Source: Escherichia coli (GTDB lineage Bacteria > Pseudomonadota > Gammaproteobacteria > Enterobacterales > Enterobacteriaceae). From it: a stretch of 64,000 bases of DNA. The stretch's first letter is position 1. Every line of letters begins with the position of its first letter. Below the pieces are notes generated by a model that saw nothing but the letters and a program-made list of their open reading frames with translations, was not told where the DNA came from and ran no database searches. The DNA is taken from NCBI RefSeq assembly GCF_051903065.1, contig NZ_CP178438.1. The stretch is one strand, 5' to 3'. This document shows, piece by piece, positions 4,724 to 57,501 of the stretch. Position numbers and translations under genes: made by a program.

Positions 4724-5050
4724 ATGAAAAAACTGATTCTCATCGCCATGATGGCATCGGGGCTGGTAGCTTGTGCGCAATCAACCGCACCACAGGAAGA
4801 CAGCCGTCTGAAAGAGGCATACAGCGCCTGTATCAACACCGCACAAGGTTCGCCGGAAAAAATTGAAGCCTGCCAGAGCGTGTTAAACGTGCTGAAGAAA
4901 GAGAAACAACATCAGCAGTTTGCCGACCAGGAAAGTGTCCGCGTACTGGATTATCAGCAGTGTCTACGTGCAACGCAAACCGGAAATGATCAGGCGGTGA
5001 AAGCCGATTGTGATAAGGTCTGGCAGGAAATTCGCAGTAATAACAAATAA
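4724..5050 (+). CDS. chiQ: lipoprotein ChiQ
   Basis: 108-aa ORF with lipoprotein signal and lipobox (…GLVAC); immediately downstream of chiP. Confidence 0.8.
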   Translation: MKKLILIAMMASGLVACAQSTAPQEDSRLKEAYSACINTAQGSPEKIEACQSVLNVLKKEKQHQQFADQESVRVLDYQQCLRATQTGNDQAVKADCDKVWQEIRSNNK

Positions 5051-5077
5051 GTGAGAGCTGTAACTCTCGCTTTTCTT
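5051..5077 (+). terminator. putative chiQ terminator
   Basis: Hairpin gagag-ctgtaa-ctctc followed by a T-rich run. Confidence 0.45.
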
Positions 5078-5091
5078 ATTTCCCTTGCATA

Positions 5092-5121
5092 AAAAAGCCA
5101 ACCCGCAGGTTGGCTTTTCTC
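5092..5121 (-). terminator. putative fur terminator (bidirectional hairpin between convergent chiQ and fur)
   Basis: Stem agccaacc/ggttggct with A-run on one side and T-run on the other, so it reads as a terminator on both strands. Confidence 0.6.
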
Positions 5122-5133
5122 GTTCAGACTGGC

Positions 5134-5580
5134 TTATTTGCCTTCGTGCGCGTGCTCATCTTCGCGGCAATCGCCTTCGGCACAGTGACCGTAAAGATAG
5201 AGACTGTGGTTAGTCAGGCGAATGCCATGTTTTGCGGCAATTTCACGCTGACGCGCTTCGATTGAATCATCACTAAATTCGATAACCTTGCCGCAGTCGA
5301 GGCAGATCAGGTGATCGTGGTGATGTTGCTGTGTCAGTTCAAATACGGATTTACCGCCTTCAAAATTGTGGCGGGTGACGATACCAGCGTCGTCAAACTG
5401 GTTCAGTACGCGATATACCGTAGCCAGACCAATTTCTTCACCCATATCGATCAGACGTTTGTATAAATCTTCCGCACTGACGTGATGGTTGTCCGGCTCC
5501 TGAAGAACTTCCAGGATTTTTAAACGTGGAAGCGTTACTTTCAGGCCAGCTTTCTTTAGGGCGGTATTGTTATCAGTCAT
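5134..5580 (-). CDS. fur: ferric uptake regulator
   Basis: 148-aa ORF, MTDNNTALKKAGLKVTLPRLKILEVL... with C-terminal His/Cys-rich metal-binding tail; matches Fur. Confidence 0.95.
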   Translation of the reverse strand: MTDNNTALKKAGLKVTLPRLKILEVLQEPDNHHVSAEDLYKRLIDMGEEIGLATVYRVLNQFDDAGIVTRHNFEGGKSVFELTQQHHHDHLICLDCGKVIEFSDDSIEARQREIAAKHGIRLTNHSLYLYGHCAEGDCREDEHAHEGK

Positions 5581-5659
5581 GCGGAATCTGTCCTGTTACT
5601 AAGCGGTTCACTTCATTAGAAGAAGTGACAGAATTTGCTCTTGAGATAATGCGTATCAT
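5573..5659 (-). CDS. uof: fur leader peptide (upstream-of-fur ORF), translationally coupled to fur
   Basis: 28-codon ORF (MIRIISRANSVTSSNEVNRLVTGQIPHD) ending 8 nt into fur; the uof leader is established knowledge for E. coli fur. Confidence 0.55.
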   Translation of the reverse strand: MIRIISRANSVTSSNEVNRLVTGQIPHD

Positions 5660-5868
5660 TATAGAATTGCCACGCCTAAATGAAAACCACAAGTCCCTGG
5701 CAAATATTGTTAATAAAAACGTGGCACAGCTTACATTTACAACGGCAAGGCCACTTGAACACCGGGACATTGTACAGGTACAACAGCAAAAGTTACAAAT
5801 TTGTAGCAATTATTTTGATTGGCATTATCTATTAATACGGCGTAGACATGAGTCTACGCCGCATCACA

Positions 5869-6399
5869 TCAGGCATTGAGAATTTCGTCGAGATGCAACT
5901 CTTCAGAAATCTGTTTAACCCATTTTTCTACACGTTCAGCGGTCAGTTCCGGCTGACGGTCTTCGTCGATAGCCAGACCGACAAAGTGGTCGTCATCTGC
6001 CAGACCTTTTGATGCTTCGAAATGATAGCCCGCAGTTGGCCAGTGACCAACGATGGTTGCACCGCGCGGTTCAATGATGTCGCGGATGGTGCCCAATGCG
6101 TCGCAGAAATATTCGGCGTAATCTTCCTGGTCACCACAACCAAACAGCGCAACCAGTTTGCCATTGAAATCAATCTCTTCGAGAGTCGGGAAGAAGTCAT
6201 CCCAGTCACACTGCGCTTCGCCGTAATACCAGGTTGGGATGCCCAGCAGCAGAATGTCATAAGCTTCCAGATCTTCTTTGCTGCTTTTTGCAATGTCATG
6301 GACATCGGCAACGTCTTTACCAAGCTGTTTTTGAATCATTTTTGCGATATTTTCGGTATTACCGGTGTCGCTGCCGAAAAAGATGCCAGTGATAGCCAT
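5869..6399 (-). CDS. fldA: flavodoxin 1
   Basis: 176-aa product from internal start [16 protein letters not shown] (flavodoxin FMN-binding loop); the six-frame ORF extends further upstream to 6516, but the flavodoxin start is at 6399. Confidence 0.9.
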
Positions 6400-6538
6400 G
6401 AGTGAAATAACCTCTTGAAACTTATTGAAATGGGGGTGGAAAATTGCCCACGGATAAAGGCAATCATAGCAGAACAGGCAGTCTTGCGGAATCAGCAAAC
6501 GAGCAGGACTGCACACTGTGCTACATGAAAGTGGAAAT

Positions 6539-14238: not shown

Positions 14239-16287
14239 TCACACCAGACCGCAAACGGTCAGTAGTAAATCAATGACTTTGATACCAATAAACGGCACCA
14301 GCAGCCCACCCAGACCGTAAATCCATAAGTTACGGCGCAACATGGCAGAAGCGGTAAGCGGTTTATAACTCACGCCTTTTAACGCCAGGGGAATCAAAAA
14401 GACGATAATCAAGGCGTTGAAAATGACCGCACTGAGAATGGCGGAGTCGGGCGAATGCAGGCGCATGATGTTCAGCGCATTTAACTGTGGATACGTTACC
14501 GCGAATGCCGCCGGAATAATGGCGAAGTATTTCGCCACATCGTTGGCAATGCTGAAGGTGGTCAGCGAGCCACGGGTCATCAGCATCTGTTTGCCAATAT
14601 GTACCACCTCGATCAACTTGGTCGGGTTAGAGTCGAGATCCACCATATTGCCCGCTTCTTTCGCCGCCTGAGTACCGGAGTTCATCGCCACCGCGACATC
14701 TGCCTGCGCCAGCGCCGGAGCATCGTTGGTGCCGTCGCCGGTCATTGCTACCAAACGGCCTTCCGCCTGATACTGACGGATCAATGCCAGCTTGGCCTCC
14801 GGTGTCGCTTCGGCGAGAAAATCATCGACGCCCGCTTCCGCGGCAATGGCGGCGGCAGTCAGACGGTTATCGCCGGTAATCATCACCGTTTTAATACCCA
14901 TTTTGCGCAGTTGGGCGAAGCGTTCTTTAATGCCGCCTTTGACGATATCTTTCAACGCAATAACGCCCAGCACACGAGAACCTTCTACTACTACCAGCGG
15001 TGTGGCCCCCTGACGCGCAACCTGATCGACTTTTTGATCAACATCGGCAGGGAAGTGACCACCGTTAGCCTCAACATGGCGGCGAATGGCATCGACAGAA
15101 CCTTTACGGATCATGCGGTTGTCGATATTGATCCCGCTCATCCGGCTTTGCGCAGTAAACGGTACAAAGGTGGCATGGAGCGACTGCACATCGCGCTCGC
15201 GCAGGTTAAAACGCTGCTTGGCGAGGATCACAATACTGCGGCCTTCCGGCGTTTCATCAGCCAGCGAAGCCAGTTGTGCGGCGTCAGCCAGCGTTTTTTC
15301 ATCCACGCCCTGCGCAGGGATAAACTCCGATGCCTGACGGTTACCGAGTGTGATGGTGCCGGTTTTATCCAGCAGCAGAACGTCAACGTCACCTGCCGCT
15401 TCAACTGCACGTCCGCTGGTGGCAATCACATTCGCGCCCAGCATCCGACTCATCCCGGCGACGCCGATCGCTGACAACAGGCCGCCAATAGTGGTTGGGA
15501 TCAGACAGACCAGCAGCGCCACCAGTACCGTTACGCTGACTGCATTACCGCCCCACGCGGAAAACGGCCACAGCGTGGCGGTTGCCAGTAAAAAGACGAT
15601 AGTCAGGGCAATCAGCAGGATGGTCAGGGCAATCTCGTTCGGCGTTTTGCGTCGCTGTGCGCCTTCCACCATCGCGATCATCCGATCCAGAAATGTCTCG
15701 CCGGGGTTAACGCTACACTCAATCACCAGCCAGTCAGAAAGAATACGCGTGCCGCCGGTGACGGAGGCAAAATCGCCGCCGGATTCACGGATCACCGGTG
15801 CCGATTCCCCGGTGATGGCGCTTTCATCGACCGATGCGCCGCCTTCAATAACTTCACCATCGCAGGGGATAATATCGCCTGCTTCTACCAGTACGATATC
15901 GCCTTTACGCAGTTGATCGGCGGGAACTTTGTCCGCCGCAGCGCCATATTTCGGTTCGCGCAGCTTGCGGGCAAAGGCCGTTTTTTTCACCCCTTTCAGG
16001 CTGTTGGCCTGCGCTTTACTGCGGCCTTCTGCCAGCGCCTCGGCGAAATTAGCGAACAGTACGGTGACCCACAGCCAGCCGCTAATGGCCACGCTAAACA
16101 GCGCATTGCCAGGCATCGCGCCGCTTGCCATCGCGATGCTAATACAGGTGGTCAGCAGACTGCCGATCCAGACGATAAACATCACCGGATTGCGCCATTG
16201 CGCCTGCGGGTTTAATTTTTTCACCGCTTCTTTCAGCGCCTGAACGACAAGTGTTGGTTCGAATAGCGCCAGTTGTTTACGACTCAT
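14239..16287 (-). CDS. kdpB: K+-transporting P-type ATPase subunit B
   Basis: 682-aa ORF with P-type ATPase phosphorylation motif DKTGT and hinge motif GDGTND. Confidence 0.95.
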
Positions 16288-16309
16288 ATTCAGTGCTCAC
16301 TCAATATCA

Positions 16310-17983
16310 TCAGGAGAGATATTCCGCCACCGGACCAAGCGCCAGGGCAGGGATAAAGGTCAGTGCGCCAACCAGCAACACGGTGCCGATTAACAGGCCA
16401 ACAAACAGCGGGCCGTGCGTTGGCAGCGTGCCGGAGCTGGCGGGTTGGCTCTTTTTACTCACCAGCGAACCGGCAATTGCCATCACCGGGATAATCACCC
16501 CGAAGCGACCGACAAACATGCAGAACGCCAGTAAACAGTTCCAGAACGGAGAGTTGGCGCTTAATCCGGCAAAGGCGCTGCCGTTGTTGTTAGCGGCGGA
16601 TGACACGGCGTACAGCACTTCGCTAAAACCATGCGGGCCAGGGTTGAGCATGGCGCTACGTCCGGCGTCGGTCATCATTGCCAGCGCCGCGCCCATCAGC
16701 ACCAGCGTCGGGGTGACCAGAATCGCCAGTGCAGTCAGTTTCATCTCACGTACGTCGATTTTTTTACCCAGATATTCCGGTGTACGACCAATCATCAGCC
16801 CGGCAATAAACACCGCCAGCAGGACAAACAGCATCATGCCGTAAAGACCAGAACCGACACCGCCGAATACCACTTCACCAATTTGCATCAGCCACATCGG
16901 CACCATGCCACCGAGAGCGGTAAACGAATCATGCATCGCAATCACCGCGCCACAGGACGCCGCCGTAGTCACGACCGCAAACAGGCTACTGACCAGCACG
17001 CCGAAACGGCTCTCTTTACCTTCCATATTGATGCTGCTGTCTGCGCCGAGCGCCAGCAGATGAGGATTACCCTGAACTTCTGCCCACATCACCACGCCTA
17101 CGCAGATGACAAAAATCACTGACATCGCCCACAGCAACATGCGCCCCTGGCGGCGATCGCCCGTCACTTCACCAAAGGCAAAGCACAGCGCTGTTGGGAT
17201 CAAGAAGATCGCCAGCATCTGCACGAAGTTGGTCAGTGCGGTTGGGTTTTCAAACGGATGCGACGAGTTGGCATTAAAGAAGCCACCGCCGTTAGTACCG
17301 AGCATCTTGATCGCTTCCTGAGAAGCCACCGGACCCATTGGTAACAGCTGTTGCGCTCCTTCAACGGTATTCACTGCCTGATAGGGCAGAAAGTTTTGCA
17401 GCGCACCTTGTTGAATAAAAAACAGTGCGATCACCAACGCCACAGGGACGAGCACCCATAACGTGATGCGTAGCAGATCGACCCAGGCATTCCCGAGTGT
17501 GCTCATGCTCTGGCGGGTAAATGCACGGATGAAGGCAAAAATCACCGCAATCCCGCTGGCGGCAGAAAGAAAGTTTTGCACTGTTAAGCCCGCCATCTGG
17601 CTGAAATAGCTCAACGTGGTTTCACCGCTATAAGATTGCCAGTTGGTATTCGTGACAAAGCTGACGGCGGTATTCAGCGCCAGATCCCACGACAGCCCCG
17701 GCAACTGCTGTGGATTAAGCGGCAGATAGTGCTGACCGAGCAACATAAAAAACAGCACCGCCAGCCCCAGCATGTTCAGGCCGAGAATGGCACAAAGATA
17801 TTGCTTCCAGTTCATCTCATGGTCAGAGACGCCAGGTAAACGAAAGAGTATACGTTCAACGCCCGCTGTACCTGGAAGAGGAATGTCATTAATCAGCCGC
17901 GCCAGCCCGCTGCCTAAAGGACGCGCCAGCACCATTAACACCAGTAAAAACGTGGCGATCAGTAAGAACCCTTGCGCAGCCAT
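16310..17983 (-). CDS. kdpA: K+-transporting ATPase subunit A
   Basis: Polytopic membrane protein from [24 protein letters not shown]...; start chosen at internal Met, and the ATG overlaps the kdpF stop (ATGA). Confidence 0.9.
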
Positions 17984-18645: not shown

Positions 18646-18832
18646 TATCAGGAAGATGTTCAGAGGAATATTTAGACACCGTTATACCAATCGAAACATA
18701 TATTCATGAAATATATATAAATATTTTCCTAATTGTTTCTATCTGACGGATATCTCACTTAAGGCTTTCTTATAAATCTGTAGGGTTTTGCCTGTCAGCG
18801 GACAAATAACCCGATAATACAAGGATGAGCAG

Positions 18833-21800
18833 ATGAGCGGAAAACCGGCGGCGCGTCAGGGCGACATGACGCAGTATGGCGGTAGCATTGTCCAGGGTTC
18901 AGCCGGGGTGCGCATCGGTGCCCCCACCGGCGTGGCCTGTTCGGTGTGCCCCGGCGGGGTGACGTCCGGCCATCCGGTCAATCCGCTGCTGGGTGCAAAG
19001 GTCCTTCCCGCTGAAACCGACATCGCCCTGCCCGCCCCGCTGCCGTTCATTCTCTCCCGCACCTACAGCAGTTACCGGACAAAAACGCCCGCGCCGGTGG
19101 GGAGCCTCGGCCCCGGCTGGAAAATGCCTGCGGATATCCGCTTACAGCTGCGCGATAACACACTGATACTCAGTGATAACGGCGGCAGAAGCCTGTATTT
19201 TGAGCACCTGTTTCCCGGTGAGGACGGTTACAGCCGCAGCGAGTCACTGTGGCTGGTGCGCGGCGGCGTGGCGAAACTGGATGAAGGTCACCGGCTGGCC
19301 GCACTCTGGCAGGCGCTGCCGGAAGAGCTTCGCCTGAGTCCGCATCGTTATCTGGCGACAAACAGTCCGCAGGGGCCGTGGTGGCTGCTCGGCTGGTGTG
19401 AGCGGGTGCCGGAAGCGGATGAGTTGCTGCCTGCGCCGCTGCCGCCGTACCGGGTACTGACCGGGCTGGTGGACCGCTTCGGGCGCACACAGACGTTCCA
19501 CCGCGAAGCCGCCGGTGAATTCAGCGGCGAAATCACCGGCGTGACGGATGGTGCCGGGCGTCACTTCCGGCTGGTACTGACCACGCAGGCGCAGCGGGCA
19601 GAAGAAGCCCGGCAGCAGGCCTCTTCCGGCGGGACGGAACCGTCCGCTTTTCCTGATACCCTGCCGGGTTACACCGAATATGGCCGGGACAACGGCATCC
19701 GTCTGTCTGCCGTGTGGCTGACGCACGACCCGGAATACCCGGACAACCTGCCAGCCGCGCCGCTGGTGCGCTATGGCTGGACGCCACGCGGCGAACTGGC
19801 GGCAGTGTATGACCGCAGCAATACACAGGTGCGCAGCTTTACTTACGATGATAAATACCGGGGCCGGATGGTGGCGCACCGTCACACGGGCCGACCGGAA
19901 ATCCGTTACCGTTACGACAGCGACGGGCGGGTGACAGAGCAGCTTAACCCGGCGGGCTTAAGCTACACCTACTGTTATGAGCAAAACCGCATCACCATCA
20001 CCGACAGCCTGGACCGCCGTGAAGTGCTGCACACGCAGGGCGAAGGCGGGCTGAAGCGGGTGGTGAAAAAGGAACACGCGGACGGCAGCGTCACGCAGAG
20101 TCAGTTTGATGCGGTGGGCAGGCTTAAGGCACAGACGGATGCCGCAGGCCGGACAACAGAATACAGCCCGGATGTGGTGACGGGACTCATCACGCGCATC
20201 ACCACACCGGATGGCAGGGCATCGGCATTTTACTATAACCACCACAGCCAGTTAACGTCAGCCACCGGGCCTGACGGGCTGGAATTGCGCCGGGAATATG
20301 ATGAATCCGGCCGTCTGATTCAGGAAACCGCCCCTGACGGCGATATCACCCGCTACCGTTATGATAATCCACACAGTGACTTACCCTGCGCAACGGACGA
20401 TGCCACCGGCAGCCGGAAAACCATGACGTGGAGCCGTTACGGCCAGTTGCTGAGCTTCACCGACTGTTCCGGTTATGTAACCCGTTATGACCATGACCGT
20501 TTCGGGCAGATGACGGCGGTGCACCGCGAGGAAGGGCTGAGTCAGTACCGCGCATACGACAGCCGTGGACAGTTAATTGCGGTGAAAGACATGCAGGGCC
20601 ATGAAATGCGGTATGAATACAACGCCGCCGGTGACCTGACCGCCGTCATTGCTCCGGACGGCAGCAGAAACGGGACACAGTACGATGCGTGGGGAAAGGC
20701 CATCCGTACCACGCAGGGCGGGCTGACGCGCAGTATGGAATACGATGCTGCCGGACGGGTCATCCGCCTGACCAGTGAAAACGGCAGCCATACCACCTTC
20801 CGTTACGATGTACTCGACCGGCTGATACAGGAAACCGGCTTTGACGGCCGCACACAGCGTTATCACCACGACCTGACCGGCAAACTTATCCGCAGCGAGG
20901 ATGAGGGGCTGGTCACCCACTGGCACTATGACGAAGCAGACCGCCTCACGCACCGCACCGTGAATGGCGAAACCGCAGAGCGGTGGCAGTATGACGAACG
21001 CGGCTGGCTGACAGACATCAGCCATATCAGCGAAGGGCACCGGGTGACGGTGCATTACGGGTATGATGAGAAAGGCCGGCTGACCGGTGAGCGTCAGACG
21101 GTGCATCACCCGCAGACGGAAGCACTGCTCTGGCAGCATGAGACCAGACACGCTTACAACGCGCAGGGACTGGCGAACCGCTGTATACCGGACAGCCTGC
21201 CCGCCGTGGAATGGCTGACCTACGGCAGCGGCTGGCTGTCAGGCATGAAGCTCGGCGACACACCGCTGGTGGATTTCACCCGCGACCGCCTGCACCGGGA
21301 AACGCTGCGCAGCTTCGGCCATTATGAACTCACCACCGCTTATACCCCTGCCGGGCAGTTACAGAGCCAGCACCTGAACAGCCTGCAGTATGACCGCGAT
21401 TACACCTGGAACGACAACGGCGAACTCATCCGCATCAGCAGCCCGCGCCATACCCGGAGTTACAGCTACAGCAACTCCGGCAGGCTGACCGGCGTTCACA
21501 CCACCACCTCAACTCTGGATATCCGCATCCCGTATGCCACGGACCCGGCAGGTAACCGCCTGCCCGACCCGGAGCTGCACCCGGACAGCACCCTCAGCAT
21601 GTGGCCGGATAACCGTATCGCCCGTGACGCGCACTATCTTTACCGGTATGACCGTCACGGCAGACTGACAGAGAAAACCGACCTCATCCCGGAAGGGGTT
21701 ATCCGCACGGATGATGAGCGCACCCACCGGTACCATTACGACAGTCAGCACCGGCTGGTGCACTACACGCGGACACAATATGCAGAGCCGCTGGTCGAAA

Positions 21801-23032
21801 GCCGCTATCTTTACGACCCGCTGGGCCGCAGGGTGGCAAAACGGGTATGGCGACGTGAACGGGACCTGACGGGCTGGATGTCGCTGTCACGGAAACCGCA
21901 AGTGACCTGGTACGGCTGGGATGGCGACCGCCTGACCACGATACAGAACGACAGAACCCGCATCCAGACGATTTATCAGCCGGGGAGCTTCACACCACTC
22001 ATCAGAGTTGAAACTGCCACCGGTGAACTGGCCAGAACGCAGCGCCGCAGCCTGGCGGATGCCCTTCAGCAGTCCGGCGGTGAAGACGGTGGCAGTGTGG
22101 TGTTCCCGCCGGTGCTGGTGCAGATGCTCGACCGGCTGGAAAGTGAAATCCTGGCTGACCGGGTGAGTGAGGAAAGTCGCCGCTGGCTGGCATCGTGCGG
22201 CCTGACGGTGGAGCAGATGCAAAACCAGATGGACCCGGTGTACACGCCGGCGCGAAAAATCCACCTGTACCACTGCGACCATCGCGGCCTGCCGCTGGCG
22301 CTTATCAGTGCGGAAGGGGCTACAGAATGGTGCGCAGAATACGATGAATGGGGCAACCTGCTGAATGAAGAGAACCCGCAACAGCTGCAGCAGCTCATCC
22401 GCCTGCCGGGTCAGCAGTATGATGAGGAGTCCGGCCTGTATTACAATCGCCACCGCTATTATGACCCGCTGCAGGGGAGGTATATCACTCAGGATCCGAT
22501 TGGGCTGAAGGGGGGATGGAATTTTTATCAGTATCCGTTGAATCCGGTTCAGTATATAGATTCAATGGGACTGGCATCAAAATATGGACACTTAAATAAT
22601 GGCGGATATGGAGCGAGACCCAACAAACCGCCTACGCCCGATCCAAGTAAATTGCCAGACATAGCGAAACAATTAAGACTGCCATATCCTATTGACCAGG
22701 CCAGTAGTGCGCCTAATGTTTTCAAAACATTCTTCAGAGCATTAAGCCCTTACGACTACACACTGTATTGCAGGAAGTGGGTAAAACCAAATCTGACTTG
22801 TACGCCACAGGATGATCCCCAGTATCCAGGGATGGATACAAAGACAGCAAGTGATTACCTGCCACAGACAAATTGGCCAACAACTCAATTACCACCAGGA
22901 TATACTTGTGCAGAACCCTATTTATTCCCAGACATTAATAAACCCGATGGGCCAGCAACAGCAGGGATAGATGATTTGGGTGAAATTTTAGCTAAAATGA
23001 AACAGAGAACATCGAGAGGAATAAGAAAATGA
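18833..23032 (+). CDS. rhsC: Rhs-family polymorphic toxin (rhsC-type): GC-rich YD-repeat core plus AT-rich variable C-terminal toxin domain
   Basis: 1399-aa ORF with many YD/RHS repeats (…YRYD…GR…), a core-end motif …[39 protein letters not shown], and a compositionally distinct tail; sits between ybfA and ybgA. Confidence 0.9.
22576..23032 (+). other. variable C-terminal toxin domain of the Rhs protein (about 150 aa, no recognisable catalytic motif)
   Basis: Begins just after the DPIGL…DSMGL core boundary; codon usage switches abruptly from GC-rich to AT-rich; Pro/Cys-containing sequence with no HNH/nuclease/deaminase motif that I can recognise. Confidence 0.6.
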
Positions 23033-23598
23033 AAAGAGTTTTGTTCTTTTTGCTGATGATATTTGTTAGTTTTGGTGTTATAGCTGATTGCGAAATACAA
23101 GCTAAAGATCATGATTGTTTTACTATTTTCGCTAAGGGTACTATTTTTTCCGCGTTTCCTGTCTTAAATAATAAAGCCATGTGGAAATGGTATCAGAATG
23201 AGGACATCGGTGAGTATTATTGGCAAACAGAACTGGGTACATGTAAAAATAATAAATTCACACCAAACGGGGCGAGACTCTTAATTCGCGTCGGGTCACT
23301 ACGCCTTAATGAAAATCATGCCATCAAAGGAACGTTGCAGGAGTTGATAAATACAGCAGAAAAAACGGCGTTTCTCGGCGATCGGTTTAGAAGTTATATA
23401 AGAGCGGGTATCTATCAAAAAAAGAGCAGTGATCCAGCTCAGTTGTTGGCAGTCCTTGATAATTCAATCATGGTTAAATATTTTAAAGATGAGAAGCCAA
23501 CTTATGCTCGAATGACAGCACATCTCCCGAACAAAGATGAGTCTTACGAATGTTTAACAAAAATACAGCATGAACTGCTTCGTAGTGAAGAAAAATAA
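23029..23598 (+). CDS. putative cognate Rhs immunity protein with N-terminal signal-peptide-like segment
   Basis: 189-aa AT-rich ORF whose ATG overlaps the rhs stop (ATGA at 23029-23032); N-terminus [19 protein letters not shown] looks like a Sec signal peptide; same size as K-12 ybfC as I recall it, but identity not verified. Confidence 0.6.
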
Positions 23599-23619
23599 AA
23601 CATCTTCCTGAGAGAATAA

Positions 23620-23757
23620 ATTAACCATTCGGGAAAACATGTTCTTAATGGATATCCAGGTACACCAGAAGGTCGATTTGGAAAAATGGATTCCGATGGT
23701 AAGAATATCATATATTCTGAATGTAATGTTTTACCCACAACTTTTGAGATTCGATAG
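23620..23757 (+). pseudogene. orphan toxin C-terminal remnant (no start codon)
   Basis: Open frame without an initiator encoding …NHSGKHVLNGYPGTPEGRFGKMDSDGKNIIYSECNVLPTTFEIR, ending 9 nt before the next small ORF; this arrangement is typical of orphan toxin-tip/immunity cassettes downstream of rhs genes. Confidence 0.4.
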
Positions 23758-23766
23758 GTGTAGAAC

Positions 23767-24069
23767 ATGAGAAACTCACTAATATTACTTATTATGATAT
23801 TGTTTACAATATCACACTCAGTATTTGGAAAAGAAAATCCAGTGGAAATTTTAGTAAATAGTTGTGAAATGGCTTTGGAATTATCATATGTTTACATTAA
23901 ATATGTATACGGGAAAGAAAAAGCAGAATTTCAGAAACCATATAGTATTACAGATGACAATAATTGTTGGAAAATCGAGGGAAAACAACCGAAGACTTTA
24001 GGAGGAAATTTTACAATACTAATAGCGAAAAAAGATGGGCAAGTGTTGAATGTAATACACACGAAATAA
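23767..24069 (+). CDS. putative orphan immunity protein (small, signal-peptide-bearing)
   Basis: 100-aa AT-rich ORF, N-terminus MRNSLILLIMILFTISHSVFG is signal-peptide-like; directly follows the toxin remnant. Confidence 0.45.
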   Translation: MRNSLILLIMILFTISHSVFGKENPVEILVNSCEMALELSYVYIKYVYGKEKAEFQKPYSITDDNNCWKIEGKQPKTLGGNFTILIAKKDGQVLNVIHTK

Positions 24070-24489
24070 TCCACTGTACAGTCGATTCAAATATTTTACC
24101 AAGGTGTGTTTCGTAACAATTTTGTGTACAATATGACTCTACATATCGACGAAAAAACCACTTGATTTGACAGGAACACATTCAAAAAAATTTCTTTTTT
24201 TCATTTCAGGAGCGATTTTCATCTGTTACTTGAAGTATCTGTGAGATTAAGTGACTCCCCCTAACGTCGTACTAAATAGTAATTACTGGCCATACCGGGA
24301 GCAGTATTCGGCGCTCCCCACATGCAGCAGAATAACCGCATCAGCCAGGGAAAGATCATCAAAAGTTCACTTTTTGCACTAAATAATTCGCATTTTATGT
24401 TTAAAAATTGAGATATTCCTTATTACCTAAAGCTGTTTTTTATTGCTTATACATGATCAAATACTCCTTACATAATTAAGGAGAACAAA

Positions 24490-25625
24490 ATGGAACTTAA
24501 AAAATTGATGGAACATATTTCTATTATCCCTGATTACAGACAAGCCTGGAAAGTGGAGCATAAATTATCGGATATTCTACTGTTGACTATTTGTGCCGTT
24601 ATTTCTGGTGCAGAAGGCTGGGAAGATATAGAGGATTTTGGGGGAACACATCTCGATTTTTTGAAGCAATATGGTGATTTTGAAAATGGTATTCCTGTCC
24701 ACGATACCATTGCCAGAGTTGTATCCTGTATCAGTCCTGCAAAATTTCACGAGTGCTTTATTAACTGGATGCGTGACTGCCATTCTTCAAATGATAAAGA
24801 CGTCATTGCAATTGATGGAAAAACACTCCGGCATTCTTATGACAAGAGTCGCCGCAGGGGAGCGATTCATGTCATTAGTGCGTTCTCAACAATGCACAGT
24901 CTGGTCATCGGACAGATCAAGACAGATGAGAAATCTAATGAGATCACAGCTATCCCTGAACTTCTTAACATGCTGGATATTAAAGGAAAAATTATCACAA
25001 CTGATGCGATTGGTTGCCAGAAAGATATCGCAGAGAAGATACAAAAACAGGGCGGTGATTATTTATTCGCTGTAAAAGGAAATCAGGGGCGGCTTAATAA
25101 AGCCTTTGAGGAAAAATTTCCACTGAAAGAATTAAATAATCCAGAGCATGACAGTTACGCAATGAGTGAAAGAGTCACGGCAGAGAAGAGATCCGTCTTC
25201 ATAATGTTTGCGATGTCCCTGATGAACTTATTGATTTCACGTTTGAATGGAAAGGGCTGAAGAAATTATGCGTGGCAGTCTCCTTTCGGTCCATAATAGC
25301 AGAACAAAAGAAAGAGCCAGAAATGACGGTCAGATATTATATCAGTTCTGCTGATTTAACCGCAGAGAAGTTCGCCACAGCAATCCGAAACCACTGGCAC
25401 GTGGAGAATAAGCTGCACTGGCGTCTGGACGTGGTAATGAATGAAGACGACTGCAAAATAAGAAGAGGAAATGCAGCAGAATTATTTTCAGGGATACGGC
25501 ACATTGCTATTAATATTTTGACGAATGATAAGGTATTCAAGGCAGGGTTAAGACGTAAGATGCGAAAAGCAGCCATGGACAGAAACTATCTGGCGTCAGT
25601 CCTTGCGGGGAGCGGGCTTTCGTAA
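24490..25625 (+). pseudogene. ISAs1-family (H-repeat-associated) transposase, disrupted by a frameshift between 25260 and 25272
   Basis: Two adjacent ORFs (24490-25260, 256 aa, frame 1; 25272-25625, 117 aa, frame 3) that together total about 378 aa, the size of an H-repeat/ISAs1 transposase (N-terminus [51 protein letters not shown]); similar to K-12 ybfD/ybfL as I recall them. Confidence 0.75.
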
Positions 25626-25637
25626 TCTTGCCCTGGA

Positions 25638-25895
25638 ATGCTGACAGATAAGAATGATTGTGCCAGAATTGAAGCTATAAGCGGACTGGCAGAAAGAAAA
25701 GATAATCGTGTTATAACTGCTATAATTTATGAACTGCAAAAAAACATAATTTTTGATGAAGTTATTATTTTGGCAGGTATTTTAGGTGATATTAAACTAC
25801 ATCCTATTCAAAAAAATATATTAAATGAATTTAATGATGAGGATGTCATTGGCAATATAAAGTCAGCAATACAACAAATTATAAAATATAATTGA
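25638..25895 (+). CDS. hypothetical protein fragment with HEAT/PBS-lyase-like repeat pattern
   Basis: 85-aa AT-rich ORF immediately after the H-repeat element; repeat-like …ARIEAISGLAERKDNRVITAIIYEL… pattern; likely a remnant. Confidence 0.3.
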   Translation: MLTDKNDCARIEAISGLAERKDNRVITAIIYELQKNIIFDEVIILAGILGDIKLHPIQKNILNEFNDEDVIGNIKSAIQQIIKYN

Positions 25896-26068
25896 TGGTG
25901 AAATATGCAGCGGTACTACCAATCGGTCAAGTATTCGCTGCTTTGATGATGATGTAAAATGATTGTTTTTGAACTGGATATAACAGCTTGGTAGGGAAGA
26001 AAGCATAACCCCACAAAATTCATTTACCATCGTCTACACTTACTCCTGTAAACCGTTCAGGAGCAGTA

Positions 26069-28142: not shown

Positions 28143-29807
<1,665 letters not shown>

Positions 29808-50081: not shown

Positions 50082-51248
50082 ATGAACTTACATGAATATC
50101 AGGCAAAACAACTGTTTGCCCGCTATGGCTTACCAGCACCGGTGGGTTATGCCTGTACTACTCCGCGCGAAGCAGAAGAAGCCGCTTCAAAAATCGGTGC
50201 CGGTCCGTGGGTAGTGAAATGTCAGGTTCACGCTGGTGGCCGCGGTAAAGCGGGCGGTGTGAAAGTTGTAAACAGCAAAGAAGACATCCGTGCTTTTGCA
50301 GAAAACTGGCTGGGCAAGCGTCTGGTAACGTATCAAACAGATGCCAATGGCCAACCGGTTAACCAGATTCTGGTTGAAGCAGCGACCGATATCGCTAAAG
50401 AGCTGTATCTCGGTGCCGTTGTAGACCGTAGTTCCCGTCGCGTGGTCTTTATGGCCTCCACCGAAGGCGGCGTGGAAATCGAAAAAGTGGCGGAAGAAAC
50501 TCCGCACCTGATCCATAAAGTTGCGCTTGATCCGCTGACTGGCCCGATGCCGTATCAAGGACGCGAGCTGGCGTTCAAACTGGGTCTGGAAGGTAAACTG
50601 GTTCAGCAGTTCACCAAAATCTTCATGGGCCTGGCGACCATTTTCCTGGAGCGCGACCTGGCGTTGATCGAAATCAACCCGCTGGTCATCACCAAACAGG
50701 GCGATCTGATTTGCCTCGACGGCAAACTGGGCGCTGATGGCAACGCCCTGTTCCGCCAGCCTGATCTGCGCGAAATGCGTGACCAGTCGCAGGAAGATCC
50801 GCGTGAAGCACAGGCTGCACAGTGGGAACTGAACTACGTTGCGCTGGACGGTAACATCGGTTGTATGGTTAACGGCGCAGGTCTGGCGATGGGTACGATG
50901 GACATCGTTAAACTGCACGGCGGCGAACCAGCTAACTTCCTTGACGTTGGCGGCGGCGCAACCAAAGAACGTGTAACCGAAGCGTTCAAAATCATTCTCT
51001 CTGACGACAAAGTGAAAGCCGTTCTGGTTAACATCTTCGGCGGTATCGTTCGTTGCGACCTGATCGCTGACGGTATCATCGGCGCGGTAGCGGAAGTGGG
51101 TGTTAACGTACCGGTCGTGGTACGTCTGGAAGGTAACAACGCCGAACTCGGCGCGAAGAAACTGGCTGACAGCGGCCTGAATATTATTGCAGCAAAAGGT
51201 CTGACGGATGCAGCTCAGCAGGTTGTTGCCGCAGTGGAGGGGAAATAA
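50082..51248 (+). CDS. sucC: succinyl-CoA synthetase beta subunit
   Basis: 388-aa [21 protein letters not shown]… (ATP-grasp). Confidence 0.95.
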
Positions 51249-52117
51249 TGTCCATTTTAATTGATAAAAACACCAAGGTTATCTGCCAGGGCTTTACCGG
51301 TAGCCAGGGGACTTTCCACTCAGAACAGGCCATTGCATACGGCACTAAAATGGTTGGCGGCGTAACCCCAGGTAAAGGCGGTACTACCCACCTCGGCCTG
51401 CCGGTGTTCAACACCGTGCGTGAAGCTGTTGCTGCTACTGGCGCTACCGCTTCTGTTATCTACGTACCAGCACCGTTCTGCAAAGACTCCATTCTGGAAG
51501 CCATCGACGCAGGCATCAAACTGATTATCACCATCACTGAAGGCATCCCGACGCTGGATATGCTGACCGTGAAAGTGAAGCTGGATGAAGCAGGCGTTCG
51601 TATGATCGGCCCGAACTGCCCAGGCGTTATCACTCCGGGTGAATGCAAAATCGGTATCCAGCCTGGTCACATTCACAAACCGGGTAAAGTGGGTATCGTT
51701 TCCCGTTCCGGTACACTGACCTATGAAGCGGTTAAACAGACCACGGATTACGGTTTCGGTCAGTCGACCTGTGTCGGTATCGGCGGTGACCCGATCCCTG
51801 GCTCTAACTTTATCGACATTCTCGAAATGTTCGAAAAAGATCCGCAGACCGAAGCGATCGTGATGATCGGTGAGATCGGCGGTAGCGCTGAAGAAGAAGC
51901 GGCTGCGTACATCAAAGAGCACGTTACCAAGCCAGTTGTGGGCTACATCGCTGGTGTGACTGCGCCGAAAGGCAAACGTATGGGCCATGCGGGTGCCATC
52001 ATTGCCGGTGGGAAAGGGACTGCGGATGAGAAATTCGCTGCTCTGGAAGCCGCAGGCGTGAAAACCGTTCGCAGCCTGGCGGATATCGGTGAAGCACTGA
52101 AAACTGTTCTGAAATAA
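51248..52117 (+). CDS. sucD: succinyl-CoA synthetase alpha subunit
   Basis: 289-aa [31 protein letters not shown]… with the phosphohistidine region (…GHAGAII…). Confidence 0.95.
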
Positions 52118-52217
52118 ATATCTGTAATAAGAAATAGCCCTCGCCGCTTCCCTCTACAGGAATGGCGAAGGGCTGTCGGTTTCGACATGGTTGGCCATCG
52201 TATGATGGCCTTTTTTA
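52118..52217 (+). ncRNA. sdhX: probable SdhX (RybD) 3'-UTR-derived sRNA with its terminator
   Basis: About 100 nt after the sucD stop contains two hairpins, the second (ggccatcgtatgatggcc + TTTTTT, 52193-52216) being a canonical intrinsic terminator. Assignment as SdhX is from established knowledge of the sucD 3' UTR; I did not verify it by alignment. Confidence 0.45.
52193..52216 (+). terminator. sdhCDAB-sucABCD operon terminator
   Basis: Perfect 7-bp stem ggccatc/gatggcc with a 4-nt loop followed by TTTTTT. Confidence 0.8.
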
Positions 52218-52352
52218 TGTCTTAAACGGTTAACCACGGTCGAAATCTGACTGCAGGCTTGACTGCATGACCACAACCACTGTGGATTGCCGCGACCGGT
52301 GATGCTGCCAACTTACTGATTTAGTGTATGATGGTGTTTTTGAGGTGCTCCA

Positions 52353-52628
52353 GTGGCTTCTGTTTCTATCAGCTGTCCCTCCTGTTCAGCTACTGACGGG
52401 GTGGTGCGTAACGGCAAAAGCACCGCCGGACATCAGCGCTATCTCTGCTCTCACTGCCGTAAAACATGGCAACTGCAGTTCACTTACACCGCTTCTCAAC
52501 CCGGTACGCACCAGAAAATCATTGATATGGCCATGAATGGCGTTGGATGCCGGGCAACAGCCCGCATTATGGGCGTTGGCCTCAACACGATTTTACGTCA
52601 CTTAAAAAACTCAGGCCGCAGTCGGTAA
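52353..52628 (+). CDS. insA: IS1 InsA
   Basis: 91-aa [46 protein letters not shown]… (zinc-finger DNA-binding InsA). Confidence 0.95.
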
Positions 52629-53050
52629 CCTCGCGCATACAGCCGGGCAGTGACGTCATCGTCTGCGCGGAAATGGACGAACAGTGGGGCTATGTCGGGG
52701 CTAAATCGCGCCAGCGCTGGCTGTTTTACGCGTATGACAGGCTCCGGAAGACGGTTGTTGCGCACGTATTCGGTGAACGCACTATGGCGACGCTGGGGCG
52801 TCTTATGAGCCTGCTGTCACCCTTTGACGTGGTGATATGGATGACGGATGGCTGGCCGCTGTATGAATCCCGCCTGAAGGGAAAGCTGCACGTAATCAGC
52901 AAGCGATATACGCAGCGAATTGAGCGGCATAACCTGAATCTGAGGCAGCACCTGGCACGGCTGGGACGGAAGTCGCTGTCGTTCTCAAAATCGGTGGAGC
53001 TGCATGACAAAGTCATCGGGCATTATCTGAACATAAAACACTATCAATAA
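52547..53050 (+). CDS. insB: IS1 InsB' (expressed as InsAB' transposase by -1 frameshift)
   Basis: 167-aa ORF in the -1 frame relative to insA, overlapping its 3' end, as in IS1. Confidence 0.9.
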
Positions 53051-53560
53051 GTTGGAGTCATTACCGCCGCGACCGACCGCAAGCCACGAATAAGAACGAC
53101 GGCGAATTTCGAATCGTTACCTGATGCACTGGCTTCCCAGCGTTTGACCGTAGCGTTAAGTAAATCAACAAAAGCGATGTTCACCGCTTTTCGTCAAGTC
53201 GTGCCATTTGTCAGCCAGGATCGGGTCTTTACCCCGGATATTGCAGCATCGCAAAAATTCTTAGATGGATATGCTATAAATCAAAAATAAAATCTTTGTT
53301 GATTGTTTATCATAATATCCACAGATATGATAAATGATATCAATTTAATAATTTTCACTTAATGTGATTCCGGATAATTCGAAAGGCGCTGTGCTTTTCG
53401 GATTATTATTATCTGATTAAGATATTTGTCACGCCAGCCTTACTGGTTTATAAATGTCAATCATGATTCTTATAAATTATTTATTGCTGCTTTGGTTACC
53501 ATTACTTCGTAATAAGTAATGTATTTTTGATGGTTTAAACTATTTTTAAGGGACGGCATT

Positions 53561-54184
53561 ATGCGAGGGAAAATACCTAAAACGGAACTGCTGGTGACTT
53601 TTGAGGTCGTCGCACGTCATGAAAGTTATACCAGAGCGGCAGAGGAGTTAGCGTTAACCCAAAGTGCAGTATTCAGACAAGTAAGTGCGCTGGAGGAATT
53701 TTTACGTACTCCGTTATTTTCACACTCTAAAAAACGCATTTTTCTTAATGATACAGGGAAGTATTACCTGGGGATAGTAAAAGAAACATTAAATAAGCTG
53801 GAACGCGATACCAATACCATTATGACCTGGCAGCCTACGGTTCAGGTTATTGAACTTGCCGTTAATCCTACTTTTAGTACCCACTGGTTGATCCCAAATT
53901 TACATGAATTCACAAAGTTACATCCCGATATTATTGTTAATATTCATTCTTTAGCTAATAACGGCGATTTTCTTAATCGGGAGTACGATGCTGTCATTAT
54001 GCGCGAAAATTTTTGCGCGCCCTGGGCGGAAGTAGAATATCTCTTTGATGAGGAGATTTTGCCGGTATGCAGCGGCAGTTTGCTTGCAATGTCCGATCAA
54101 AAGCTGTCAGTGGCAGAACTGCTTACTGAGTTACCGCTTCTGCATCAAAGCACGGCTTTGTTGAATAAATCAGATTTCGGGTAA
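53561..54184 (+). pseudogene. LysR-family transcriptional regulator, 3'-truncated by the IS903-like element (native codons 1-197; the last codons are IS-derived)
   Basis: N-terminal LysR-type HTH (…LVTFEVVARHESYTRAAEELALTQSAVFRQVSALEEFL…); the reading frame runs into the IS903 inverted repeat at 54153 and terminates 32 nt inside it; AT-rich. Confidence 0.8.
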
Positions 54185-55210
54185 GTCTCCCCCGTAGCGG
54201 GTTGTGTTTTCAGGCAATACGCACGCTTTCAGGCATACCTGCTTTCGTCATTTTGTTCAGCGCTCGTACCAGGGCCATAGCCTCTGCAACCTGACCATCG
54301 TAGTCACGCAGTGTCAGTGAACCCCCGAACAGCTGTTTTACCCGGTACATCGCCGTTTCCGCTATCGAGCGACGGTTGTAATCTGTTGTCCATTTCCACC
54401 GCGCATTACTCCCGGTCATTCGCTGATTAGCCACTGCACGGTTACGGTCTGCATATTCACCGGGCCAGTAACCCGCACCTTTTCGGGGAGGGATAAGCGC
54501 GCTGATTTTCTTACGCCGCAGTTCATCGTGACATAGCCGGGTATCGTAAGCGCCATCGGCGGCGGCTGACCTGATTTTCCGGTGGGTTTGCCGGATTAAC
54601 CCGGGGAAGGCCTCTGAGTCCGTAACGTTGTTCAGCGACAGGTCAGCGCAGATGATTTCATGTGTTTTACTGTCAACGGCGAGATGCAGCTTACGCCAGA
54701 TACGGCGGCGTTCCTGGCCATGCTTTTTGACTTTCCACTCGCCTTCACCGAAGACCTTCAGCCCGGTGGAATCAATTACCAGGTGTGCGATTTCACCCCG
54801 GGTGGGCGTTTTGAAACTGACATTAACCGACTTTGCCCGCCTGCTGACACAGCTGTAATCCGGGCAGCGTAGCGGAACGTTCATCAGAGAAAAAATGGAA
54901 TCAATAAAGCCCTGCGCAGCGCGCAGGGTCAGCCTGAATACGCGTTTAATGACCAGCACAGTCGTGATGGCAAGGTCAGAATAGCGCTGAGGTCTGCCTC
55001 GTGAAGAAGGTGTTGCTGACTCATACCAGGCCTGAATAGCTTCATCATCCAGCCAGAAAGTTATGGAGCCACGGTTGATGAGGGCTTTATTGTAGGTGGG
55101 CCAGTTGGTGATTTTGAACTTTTGCTTTGCCACGGAACGGTCTGCGTTGTCGGGAAGATACGTGATCTGATCCTTCAACTCAGCAAAAGTTCGATTTATT
55201 CAACAAAGCC
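54153..55210 (-). mobile_element. IS903-like element (IS5 family, IS903 group), about 1058 bp, with 18-bp terminal inverted repeats and no flanking target duplication
   Basis: Ends ggctttgttgaataaatc (54153-54170) and gatttattcaacaaagcc (55193-55210); encodes the transposase below; flanking 9-mers tcaaagcac and atttatcag differ. Confidence 0.85.
54210..55178 (-). CDS. IS903-type transposase
   Basis: ORF …KQKFKITNWPTYNKALINRGSITFWLDDEAIQAWYESATPSSRGRPQRYSDLAITTVLVIKRVFRLTLRAAQGF… with DDE-type motifs (…VIDSTGLKV…, …AADGAYDTR…, …YNRRSIAETAMYRVKQLFG…); the track start is at 55178, and the true start may be an internal GTG. Confidence 0.85.
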   Translation of the reverse strand: MKDQITYLPDNADRSVAKQKFKITNWPTYNKALINRGSITFWLDDEAIQAWYESATPSSRGRPQRYSDLAITTVLVIKRVFRLTLRAAQGFIDSIFSLMNVPLRCPDYSCVSRRAKSVNVSFKTPTRGEIAHLVIDSTGLKVFGEGEWKVKKHGQERRRIWRKLHLAVDSKTHEIICADLSLNNVTDSEAFPGLIRQTHRKIRSAAADGAYDTRLCHDELRRKKISALIPPRKGAGYWPGEYADRNRAVANQRMTGSNARWKWTTDYNRRSIAETAMYRVKQLFGGSLTLRDYDGQVAEAMALVRALNKMTKAGMPESVRIA

Positions 55211-55581
55211 ATTTATCAGGCGAAAGTGGCCTCTGTTCACTCAGAAACAATCACTCCCGGTAAGTCATACCTGTTTCATCGATACATTTAAGTGATTATT
55301 ACTAATGAAACAATAACATAACGGGCTTACGGTCGGTGCTCATAAAGGCAACAATCAATTAACTTTGATAAAAATATGTTATGTAAAATAGCAACAAATT
55401 GGCTACTCTAATCAATTGGTATTATAAAAAGTTGATTGGGCGGTTCTGTTAAATAAAACACTGGTTTTTTATCTATACCTTTTCATTGTAATAATTGTGT
55501 TGCATAAATATTTCACAATAAATTAACAATAAAATCACCAATGATCTATGGTTTATACATAATTAACATATTTGGTTGGTT

Positions 55582-55595
55582 TTGATATAAATCAA
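55582..55595. promoter_or_regulatory. perfect FNR/CRP-family box TTGAT-ATAA-ATCAA in the cydAB upstream region
   Basis: Sequence ttgatataaatcaa matches the FNR consensus TTGAT-N4-ATCAA exactly, about 340 bp upstream of the cydA start; cydAB is known to be FNR/ArcA-regulated. Confidence 0.55.
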
Positions 55596-55932
55596 TTTTT
55601 AATTCTTGAAAAAAATCTGCAAAACACGATAAATTGTCGTAGATCAAATTGGTGAGATCGTGACAATTTCGCTATAAATTGATCACTGTCGAAAAATGCA
55701 AATTTGCTCAATAAAAACCTGTTTATTGTAAGGATTTTGCGGCGTAATATAATTACGGGATCAATTTGGTTTATTCATTAACATATTTGTAACTTTTTTA
55801 TCATTGTCTTTTCCTCTTTTGATGAAATGGCAACGATAGAGGCGAGCAAATAATTTTGTATTGGGGCATGCGTGTGACCCTTTCTAACGGGGTTCACTCT
55901 CGGAGTCTTCATGCGATGAGCAAGGAGTCATG

Positions 55933-57501
55933 ATGTTAGATATAGTCGAACTGTCGCGCTTACAGTTTGCCTTGACCGCGATGTACCACTTCCTTTTTGT
56001 GCCACTGACGCTCGGTATGGCGTTCCTGCTGGCCATTATGGAAACGGTCTACGTCCTTTCCGGCAAACAGATTTATAAAGATATGACCAAGTTCTGGGGC
56101 AAGTTGTTTGGTATTAACTTTGCTCTGGGTGTGGCTACCGGTCTGACCATGGAGTTCCAGTTCGGGACTAACTGGTCTTACTATTCCCACTATGTAGGGG
56201 ATATCTTCGGTGCGCCGCTGGCAATCGAAGGTCTGATGGCCTTCTTCCTCGAATCCACCTTTGTAGGTCTGTTCTTCTTCGGTTGGGATCGTCTGGGTAA
56301 AGTTCAGCATATGTGTGTCACCTGGCTGGTGGCGCTCGGTTCAAACCTGTCCGCACTGTGGATTCTGGTTGCGAACGGCTGGATGCAAAACCCAATCGCG
56401 TCCGATTTCAACTTTGAAACTATGCGTATGGAGATGGTGAGCTTCTCCGAGCTGGTGCTTAACCCGGTTGCTCAGGTGAAATTCGTTCACACTGTAGCGT
56501 CTGGTTATGTGACTGGCGCGATGTTCATCCTCGGTATCAGCGCATGGTATATGCTGAAAGGTCGTGACTTCGCCTTCGCTAAACGCTCCTTTGCTATCGC
56601 TGCCAGCTTCGGTATGGCTGCCGTTCTGTCTGTTATTGTTCTGGGTGATGAATCTGGTTACGAAATGGGCGACGTGCAGAAAACCAAACTGGCTGCTATT
56701 GAAGCTGAGTGGGAAACGCAACCTGCGCCTGCTGCCTTTACTCTGTTCGGCATTCCTGATCAGGAAGAGGAGACGAACAAATTTGCGATCCAGATCCCTT
56801 ACGCGCTGGGCATCATTGCAACGCGTTCCGTGGATACTCCAGTTATCGGCCTGAAAGAACTGATGGTGCAGCATGAAGAACGCATTCGTAACGGGATGAA
56901 GGCGTACTCTCTGCTCGAGCAACTGCGTTCTGGTTCTACCGACCAGGCGGTTCGTGACCAGTTCAATAGCATGAAGAAAGACCTCGGTTACGGTCTGCTG
57001 CTGAAACGCTATACGCCAAACGTGGCTGATGCGACTGAAGCTCAGATTCAACAGGCAACCAAAGACTCCATCCCGCGTGTAGCGCCGCTGTACTTTGCGT
57101 TCCGTATCATGGTGGCGTGTGGCTTCCTGCTGCTGGCAATCATCGCGCTCTCTTTCTGGAGTGTCATCCGCAACCGCATTGGCGAGAAAAAATGGCTCCT
57201 GCGCGCCGCGCTGTACGGTATTCCGCTGCCGTGGATTGCTGTAGAAGCGGGCTGGTTCGTGGCTGAATATGGCCGCCAACCGTGGGCTATCGGTGAAGTG
57301 CTGCCGACAGCTGTGGCGAACTCGTCACTGACCGCAGGCGATCTCATCTTCTCAATGGTGCTGATTTGCGGCCTGTATACCCTGTTCCTGGTGGCAGAAT
57401 TGTTCTTAATGTTCAAGTTTGCACGCCTCGGCCCAAGCAGCCTGAAAACCGGTCGCTATCACTTTGAGCAGTCTTCCACGACTACTCAGCCGGCACGCTA
57501 A
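55933..57501 (+). CDS. cydA: cytochrome bd-I ubiquinol oxidase subunit I
   Basis: Product [31 protein letters not shown]… (the track ORF has one additional upstream Met at 55930). Confidence 0.95.

Follow-up and report, generated by a model that had tools for sequence, protein, structure and literature searches.

An Escherichia coli LysR-type regulator (LTTR) gene that ends prematurely in an insertion sequence between sucD and cydA is, with a probability that we put at about 0.9, the 5' remnant of the LTTR gene of an optional enterobacterial methylaspartate/FumD island, left after an IS903B-associated deletion, with IS1 inserted in a separate event. The remnant lies in a stretch of 64,000 nucleotides from contig NZ_CP178438.1, which is called the window here and whose positions are used throughout; the region of interest is bounded by sucD (51248-52117) and cydA (55930-57501) (Table 1). 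The window copy is a truncated member of the LTTR family, i.e., a pseudogene. It is a case of ordinary genome decay, an IS-truncated remnant of an accessory island that has already been described, and it is not new as a pseudogene, having been annotated as such by PGAP in identical sequence.

Table 1. Features of the sucD-cydA interval in the window
Feature	Position	Strand	Basis
sdhX sRNA (sucD 3'UTR) and terminator	52118..52218	+	K-12 identity
RtcB-family gene, two short relics split by IS1	52221-52259; 52260-52297 continuing 53075-53093 (19 bp)	-	blastn
IS1A, 768 bp, simple insertion	52298..53065	+	Sequence read directly; insA and insB ORFs; PGAP name in sister genome
HAL/PAL/TAL-family (hutH-like) ammonia-lyase gene, 3' part, two relic pieces	53097..53290 (~194 bp)	+	tblastn, blastn
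LysR gene, true leader/promoter region, very AT-rich	53291..53560	+	Composition
LysR-type regulator gene, native part (residues 1-198 of 301), pseudogene remnant	53561..54153	+	Pfam domains; XH990 allele identity
IS903B (IS5 family), 1057 bp	54154..55210	-	Transposase 54210-55178 on - strand
Island-type spacer and cydA upstream region	55211..55929 (719 bp, very AT-rich)	+	Comparison with XH990 and K-12

Anatomy of the truncated regulator gene

The native part of the gene encodes the N-terminal winged helix-turn-helix of LTTRs. Pfam model HTH_1 (PF00126) matches residues 9 to 66 (E value, 2.3e-16; model positions 2 to 59/60), in line with the LysR-type domain recognized in an earlier reading of the sequence alone (the sequence-only reading). 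The co-inducer-binding domain had been described there as incomplete, and LysR_substrate (PF03466) matches residues 96 to 190 (E value, 1.3e-9) over model positions 7 to 104 of 209 only; a complete protein of about 300 aa has both PF03466 subdomains, and 198 native residues are present here. The first 593 bp are 100% identical to the intact allele of E. coli strain XH990 (WP_001214265), and the remnant carries no substitutions relative to intact alleles. The identity ends at 54153, after the second base of codon 198, so a cut placed earlier after codon 197 was right to within one codon. Residue 198 (Thr) is preserved by chance and is followed by nine residues encoded by IS903B (ALLNKSDFG) and by a stop codon (54182-54184) that sits inside the element. 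The chimeric frame in the open reading frame list (53561-54184, plus strand) has 207 aa, and codons 199 to 301, the last 103 of the regulator, are absent from the window. PGAP labels the identical sequence in sister genomes a pseudogene ("incomplete; missing C-terminus").

The truncated gene could still encode a functional DNA-binding-only protein, which would repress its own promoter without sensing an effector or interfere with related GcvA-like regulators. All 207 codons are open, the native start, ribosome binding site, and leader are intact, HTH_1 is complete, and the closest characterized relatives are GcvA-type regulators, which are also present in E. coli. However, the effector domain is cut at about half of its model, and misfolding is expected of a partial Rossmann-like LTTR effector domain. 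In addition, the presumed target operon has been lost, PGAP calls the gene a pseudogene, and the event is confined to two to three near-identical genomes, which gives no sign of selection. We consider a surviving function of this kind very unlikely. The 207-aa chimeric product, which still has the DNA-binding domain and the linker together with roughly half the effector domain, is most likely unstable and without function. We infer that the remnant fragment is inactive; it has nothing left to regulate because its presumed target cluster has been deleted. Annotation of the gene as a pseudogene, and of the locus as an IS903B-associated deletion, would be appropriate.

The IS903B-associated deletion

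The truncating element, which had been called IS903-like, is a complete IS903B of 1057 bp. It has identical 18-bp terminal inverted repeats (GGCTTTGTTGAATAAATC) at both ends and a single transposase ORF of 322 aa, and PGAP names the identical 322-aa protein IS903B transposase. It is the only copy within the window. The 9-bp flanks of the element are unlike (TCAAAGCAC versus ATTTATCAG), and the 9-bp target duplication that a simple insertion would leave is thus missing, which is consistent with deletion or recombination instead.

Comparison with XH990 gives the extent of this event. Window positions 55210 to 56100 are 99.4% identical to positions 11830 to 10940 of the XH990 locus (L003), and 12,468 bp of that locus (L003 11831-24298) are missing from the window, with IS903B exactly at the join. 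This deletion took the final 103 codons of the regulator along with cobO, fumD, a symporter gene, a DUF4387 gene, an AtuA/DUF1446 gene, mal, glmE, glmL, glmS, and two hypothetical genes, and its right junction is 83 bp beyond the island's first hypothetical gene. Both sucD and cydA are in their native orientation, indicating a deletion and not an inversion. The sequence-only reading missed this 12,468-bp deletion and the loss of the methylaspartate/FumD cluster, which is the main event at the locus.

The junction between the LysR gene and IS903B was found in 2 of 5426 complete E. coli genomes, and the IS1 junction was found in the same 2. These genomes, 23CRST027 and 23CRST031, are from human faecal isolates from Ecuador, and the window is 99.99% identical to them. 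Loss of the cluster was examined with a 300-bp mal probe appended to the original query, with matching places counted per genome. The number of matching places was unchanged in the two junction-sharing genomes (4 and 4) and increased by one in each of the six listed intact-locus genomes. The absence of an extra mal match in both junction-sharing genomes indicates that the cluster was lost there and not moved. The rarity of the junctions, together with a remnant free of substitutions relative to intact alleles, indicates that the deletion is recent.

These comparisons also bear on the possibility that the gene is really intact and the junction an assembly artefact, such as might result from a collapse across copies of IS903B. 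In favor of this possibility, the chromosomes of 23CRST027 and 23CRST031 carry approximately 19 to 21 IS903B-end matches and 37 IS1 matches each, and the window differs from both of these RefSeq relatives by one 47-bp IS-end repeat. However, these two complete genomes, which were assembled independently, have the same left junction and right flank, and both lack mal. An artefact is thus highly improbable, and we rejected it because two independent assemblies share the junction and neither has mal.

In 23CRST027 and 23CRST031, the last 47 bp of IS903B occur a second time, in tandem, between the element and ATTTATCAG (L002 8090-8183 and L044, about 5081-5174); the window has one copy (55164-55210). 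The extra IS903B end fits the participation of a second IS903B copy. The single copy in the window could reflect the loss of one repeat or an assembly collapse. An independent IS903B is present in strain GN25 (NZ_CP139196.1; L005), where it splits the hypothetical gene next to cydA, a few hundred base pairs away (locus 15260-17276), which shows that such insertions near cydA do occur. The fumD gene of GN25 (locus 4778-6430) has an internal stop.

The most likely course of events began with the insertion of IS903B into codon 198 of the regulator gene in an ancestor of the strain. An IS903B-associated deletion would then have taken the 12,468 bp, either as an adjacent deletion through intramolecular transposition or by recombination with a second IS903B copy near cydA. 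Intramolecular transposition of the regulator-gene element into a second copy near cydA would leave an extra IS end. IS1 was inserted separately, upstream of the regulator.

IS1 insertion and relics on the sucD side

The upstream element is an IS1A of 768 bp with insA and insB' frames and a perfect 9-bp target duplication, GCCGCGACC, at 52289-52297 and 53066-53074. The flanking IS elements had been taken earlier, together with the low GC content, to suggest horizontally acquired or strain-specific DNA, and a related idea is that the LysR fragment arrived as cargo on a mobile or horizontally transferred segment with IS1 and IS903B at its ends. Two IS elements do flank a low-GC segment, but they belong to different families, so a composite transposon is not possible, and the target duplication marks IS1 as a simple insertion of its own. 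Once the IS elements are removed, both sides are colinear with the IS-free XH990 locus, and the flanks are colinear with hundreds of IS-free genomes. The LysR coding sequence is also full length in 1120 genomes and has the same sucD neighborhood in other genera. We give the cargo explanation almost no weight, and the IS elements do not support horizontal acquisition. A composite transposon of the form IS1-LysR'-IS903B is refuted by colinearity with the IS-free locus. Because no more than two other complete genomes share both junctions, the IS elements represent late, lineage-private damage to a preexisting locus.

In an alignment with the K-12 sucD-cydA locus, homology extends to 52224 and restarts at 55557. 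On the sucD side, window positions 52000 to 52224 are 99.1% identical to the K-12 locus (L004 1933-2156), including the annotated sdhX, which is the last shared stretch. A terminator-like hairpin (52193-52210) followed by a T-run belongs to sdhX. The assignment of sdhX was made through K-12 identity and not through Rfam, as an Rfam scan of 51800 to 56000 at gathering thresholds gave no match, sdhX included. By this identity sdhX is intact, and IS1 is located 80 bp downstream of its terminator, which it probably leaves unaffected. On the cydA side, K-12 homology restarts at only 82% identity; the cydA upstream regulatory region (55557-55975) is 82% identical to K-12, and the flanking genes are approximately 98 to 99% identical. 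Intervals of this type seem to be accompanied by a diverged cydA promoter allele. Another IS-associated variable spot in the window is found at approximately 18830 to 25900, where an RHS core protein gene, ybfC, and an NTF2-fold immunity gene are followed by a frameshifted ISAs1-family transposase gene, according to the annotation of a near-identical locus (L043).

The low GC content noted earlier was borne out by calculation: the LysR fragment has 42.2% GC and positions 53250 to 53560 have 28.0%, compared to 51.7% for the whole window. The roughly 490 bp upstream of the gene had been described as very AT-rich DNA, and the 486 bp from 53075 to 53560 do have 35.8% GC. However, this is not one AT-rich leader, as positions 53075 to 53290 (216 bp) consist almost wholly of gene relics. 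Positions 53075 to 53093 continue the second of two RtcB relics, which are split by IS1 (Table 1); by blastn, these two relics match the RtcB coding sequence (28301-29698) of a long-form locus described below (E. coli 2022H048; L046) with identities of 92% (39 bp) and 89% (57 bp). Two others match the 556-aa ammonia-lyase encoded at the same 2022H048 locus by tblastn: positions 53097 to 53158 correspond to residues 378 to 397 (90% over 20 aa), and positions 53150 to 53290 correspond to residues 511 to 556 (89% over 46 aa), with a TAA stop at 53288-53290. The ammonia-lyase relics were also found with blastn against the long-form locus.

The start codon and ribosome binding site context of the LysR gene is conserved over 12 orthologous loci. 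A promoter consensus scan of the leader returned 5 sites, versus 3.9 ± 1.9 in shuffled sequence, and none was assigned. A search for an operator common to this leader and the regions upstream of glmS, hutU, the symporter gene, and fumD returned only chance AT-rich 9- to 10-mers. Two T-N11-A dyads are present within the leader (53338 and 53355), without supporting evidence.

The intact gene and the methylaspartate/FumD island

The intact parent gene, which the sequence-only reading had suggested searching for, is the 301-aa gene found directly after sucD in XH990, between sucD and the methylaspartate cluster. The XH990 order is sucD, the LysR gene, a convergent cobO-fumD-symporter-DUF4387-AtuA-mal-glmE-glmL-glmS cluster, two hypothetical genes, and cydA. 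The products of the cluster include a class I fumarate hydratase, a dicarboxylate/amino acid symporter, methylaspartate ammonia-lyase, and glutamate (methylaspartate) mutase E. The same arrangement, in which the LTTR gene adjoins cobO(cobA), fumD, a gltP-like symporter gene, a DUF1446/AtuA gene, mal, glmE, glmL, and glmS, is found at the intact E. coli locus and in other genera. All of these partners are absent from the window, which holds a remnant only.

Known as the "glutamate fermentation" cluster, it was drawn with an "LTTR" gene as a member by Kronen and Berg (PLoS One, 2015; PMC4682846), who reported a frequency of 26.5% in E. coli and 90.6% in O157:H7 and showed that the fumarase homologue FumD is a mesaconase. 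They did not find conditions that induce its expression (PMC4682846). The island serves the conversion of glutamate to methylaspartate, mesaconate, and citramalate, as already described in that literature (PMC4682846). Experimental work on this LTTR was not found in our literature search.

Of 5426 complete E. coli genomes, 1127 (21%) have the LysR coding sequence in the sucD-cydA interval, and it is full length in 1120 of the 1127. The count of 1127 is for the coding sequence alone; the 1391 matches obtained with a 1110-bp query overstate the number of carriers, since that query held the upstream relics and 31 bp of IS903B. The gene is therefore not normally present at this position in most E. 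coli strains, and with mngR found in 3884 of 5426 genomes, the description of this DNA as strain variable holds. Seven of the 1127 carriers have a truncated LTTR gene, indicating that decay of the island is recurrent but rare. The LTTR gene of strain 2018-05-2CC contains an IS1, and that of Escherichia sp. MOD1-EC7003 is broken near residue 155, with its parts on two contigs (L039/L040).

In a survey of one genome per species, orthologues with 79 to 92% identity were found in nine genera, namely, Escherichia, Citrobacter, Salmonella enterica subsp. arizonae and diarizonae, Klebsiella, Enterobacter, Raoultella, Pluralibacter, Lelliottia, and Buttiauxella. At every locus with enough flank, the gene is tail-to-tail with cobO-fumD-...-mal-glmE, often with sucD upstream. 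This conserved linkage and the near-universal integrity of the gene in E. coli carriers suggest that the intact LTTR likely regulates the glm-mal-fumD cluster, whose presumptive regulator is well conserved. Against such a role, the LTTR gene is convergent with the operon, unlike the divergent layout classic for LTTRs, and the operator search described above found no common site.

The best NCBIfam match of the intact orthologue is the GcvA subfamily (NF008352), which it matches over its full length at 220.3 bits, versus a curated cutoff of 288. The best solved structure for the intact LTTR is that of GcvA (8y6u; E value, 1.4e-42). By these matches, the LTTR is classed as GcvA-like and not as GcvA.

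Long form of the locus and erosion of the interval

K-12 carries mngR-mngA-mngB between sucD and cydA, as the sequence-only reading had stated in placing the LysR gene where mngR lies in K-12. The interval is indeed the same, but the gene does not simply replace mngR, because a long form of the locus carries both. In E. coli 2022H048 (NZ_AP029609.1 3085000-3125000; L046), mngRAB, the LTTR gene, and the methylaspartate cluster occur together, in the order sucD, mngR-mngA-mngB, an RtcB-family gene, hutU, an NCS1 permease gene, hutD, hutI, hutG, an ammonia-lyase gene (556 aa), the LTTR gene, the methylaspartate cluster, and cydA. This hut-like operon includes the divergent HAL-type ammonia-lyase gene, whose product is a divergent HutH relative that falls below curated cutoffs. 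The full ammonia-lyase gene is present in 145 of 5426 genomes, and 835 more retain only its last 138 bp.

The RtcB and ammonia-lyase relics indicate that the common form with the LysR gene and methylaspartate cluster descends from a long-form-like ancestor via several deletions. In the K-12 mngB-cydA spacer, a search for long-form relics found none, and we therefore make no claim that the K-12 arrangement arose from the long form. A search for mngRAB in the sucD-LysR gap of other genera gave no matches. Altogether, at least four nested states of the sucD-cydA interval can be distinguished: the long form, mngRAB alone, the LysR gene and methylaspartate cluster accompanied by relics, and an eroded form.

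The remnant and the neighboring relics can be read as a record of the stepwise erosion of a much larger interval, the long form, which 145 of 5426 E. coli genomes still have intact and in which the hut-like operon runs into the LTTR gene and this gene abuts the glutamate mutase/methylaspartase/FumD operon. A further reading, which we find doubtful, is that the LTTR is the hinge regulator of a single route from histidine to glutamate to mesaconate/citramalate and senses a pathway intermediate. Through the hut products, the methylaspartate route would be supplied with glutamate, and a hinge regulator, if real, would explain why no inducing condition was found in the hut-less O157:H7 form. A literature search for a link between hut genes and glutamate mutase in E. 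coli found none, and nothing of such a function is left in the window itself.

One contig in a Citrobacter sp. metagenome-assembled genome (MAG) (DXKH01000067.1; L006) carries the hut-like operon and the LTTR gene at 88 to 100% protein identity to 2022H048; five of the six hut-like proteins are 97 to 100% identical, HutD is 88% identical, and the LTTR is 99% identical. A Citrobacter-type copy (L013; 86%) is present in this MAG as well. The DXKH01000067.1 contig probably consists of Escherichia DNA that was misassigned to a Citrobacter MAG during binning.

The IS-rich human faecal E. coli lineage represented by the window has lost both optional gene sets, mngRAB and methylaspartate/FumD, and has kept a dead regulator stub. 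The finding is of little consequence for the strain, and the wider context is of more interest: the nested erosion states and the hut-like operon that adjoins the regulator in the long form are mildly new.

Comparison with known systems

The window remnant is the same gene as the "LTTR" of Kronen and Berg (O157:H7 type; WP_001214265 / WP_001214258), with the same position next to sucD and the same leader, and is approximately 99.2% identical to the O157:H7 alleles. In contrast to that gene, the window copy lacks codons 199 to 301 and the partner cluster and ends in the nine IS903B-encoded residues. Compared to the K-12 sucD-mngR-mngA-mngB-cydA locus, the flanking genes are the same, but the mng genes are absent here. 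The LTTR shares its domain order with the GcvA subgroup but differs from it in genomic context, and DsdC and AmpR are further relatives.

The locus as a whole resembles the adjacent deletions of IS903/IS903B (IS5 family) in having a complete element with intact inverted repeats and no 9-bp duplication and in the displacement of one flank by 12.5 kb along the chromosome with orientation preserved. It differs in the additional 47-bp IS end, which is present in the sister genomes but not in the window. The window sequence itself fits one-step intramolecular transposition and two-copy recombination alike.
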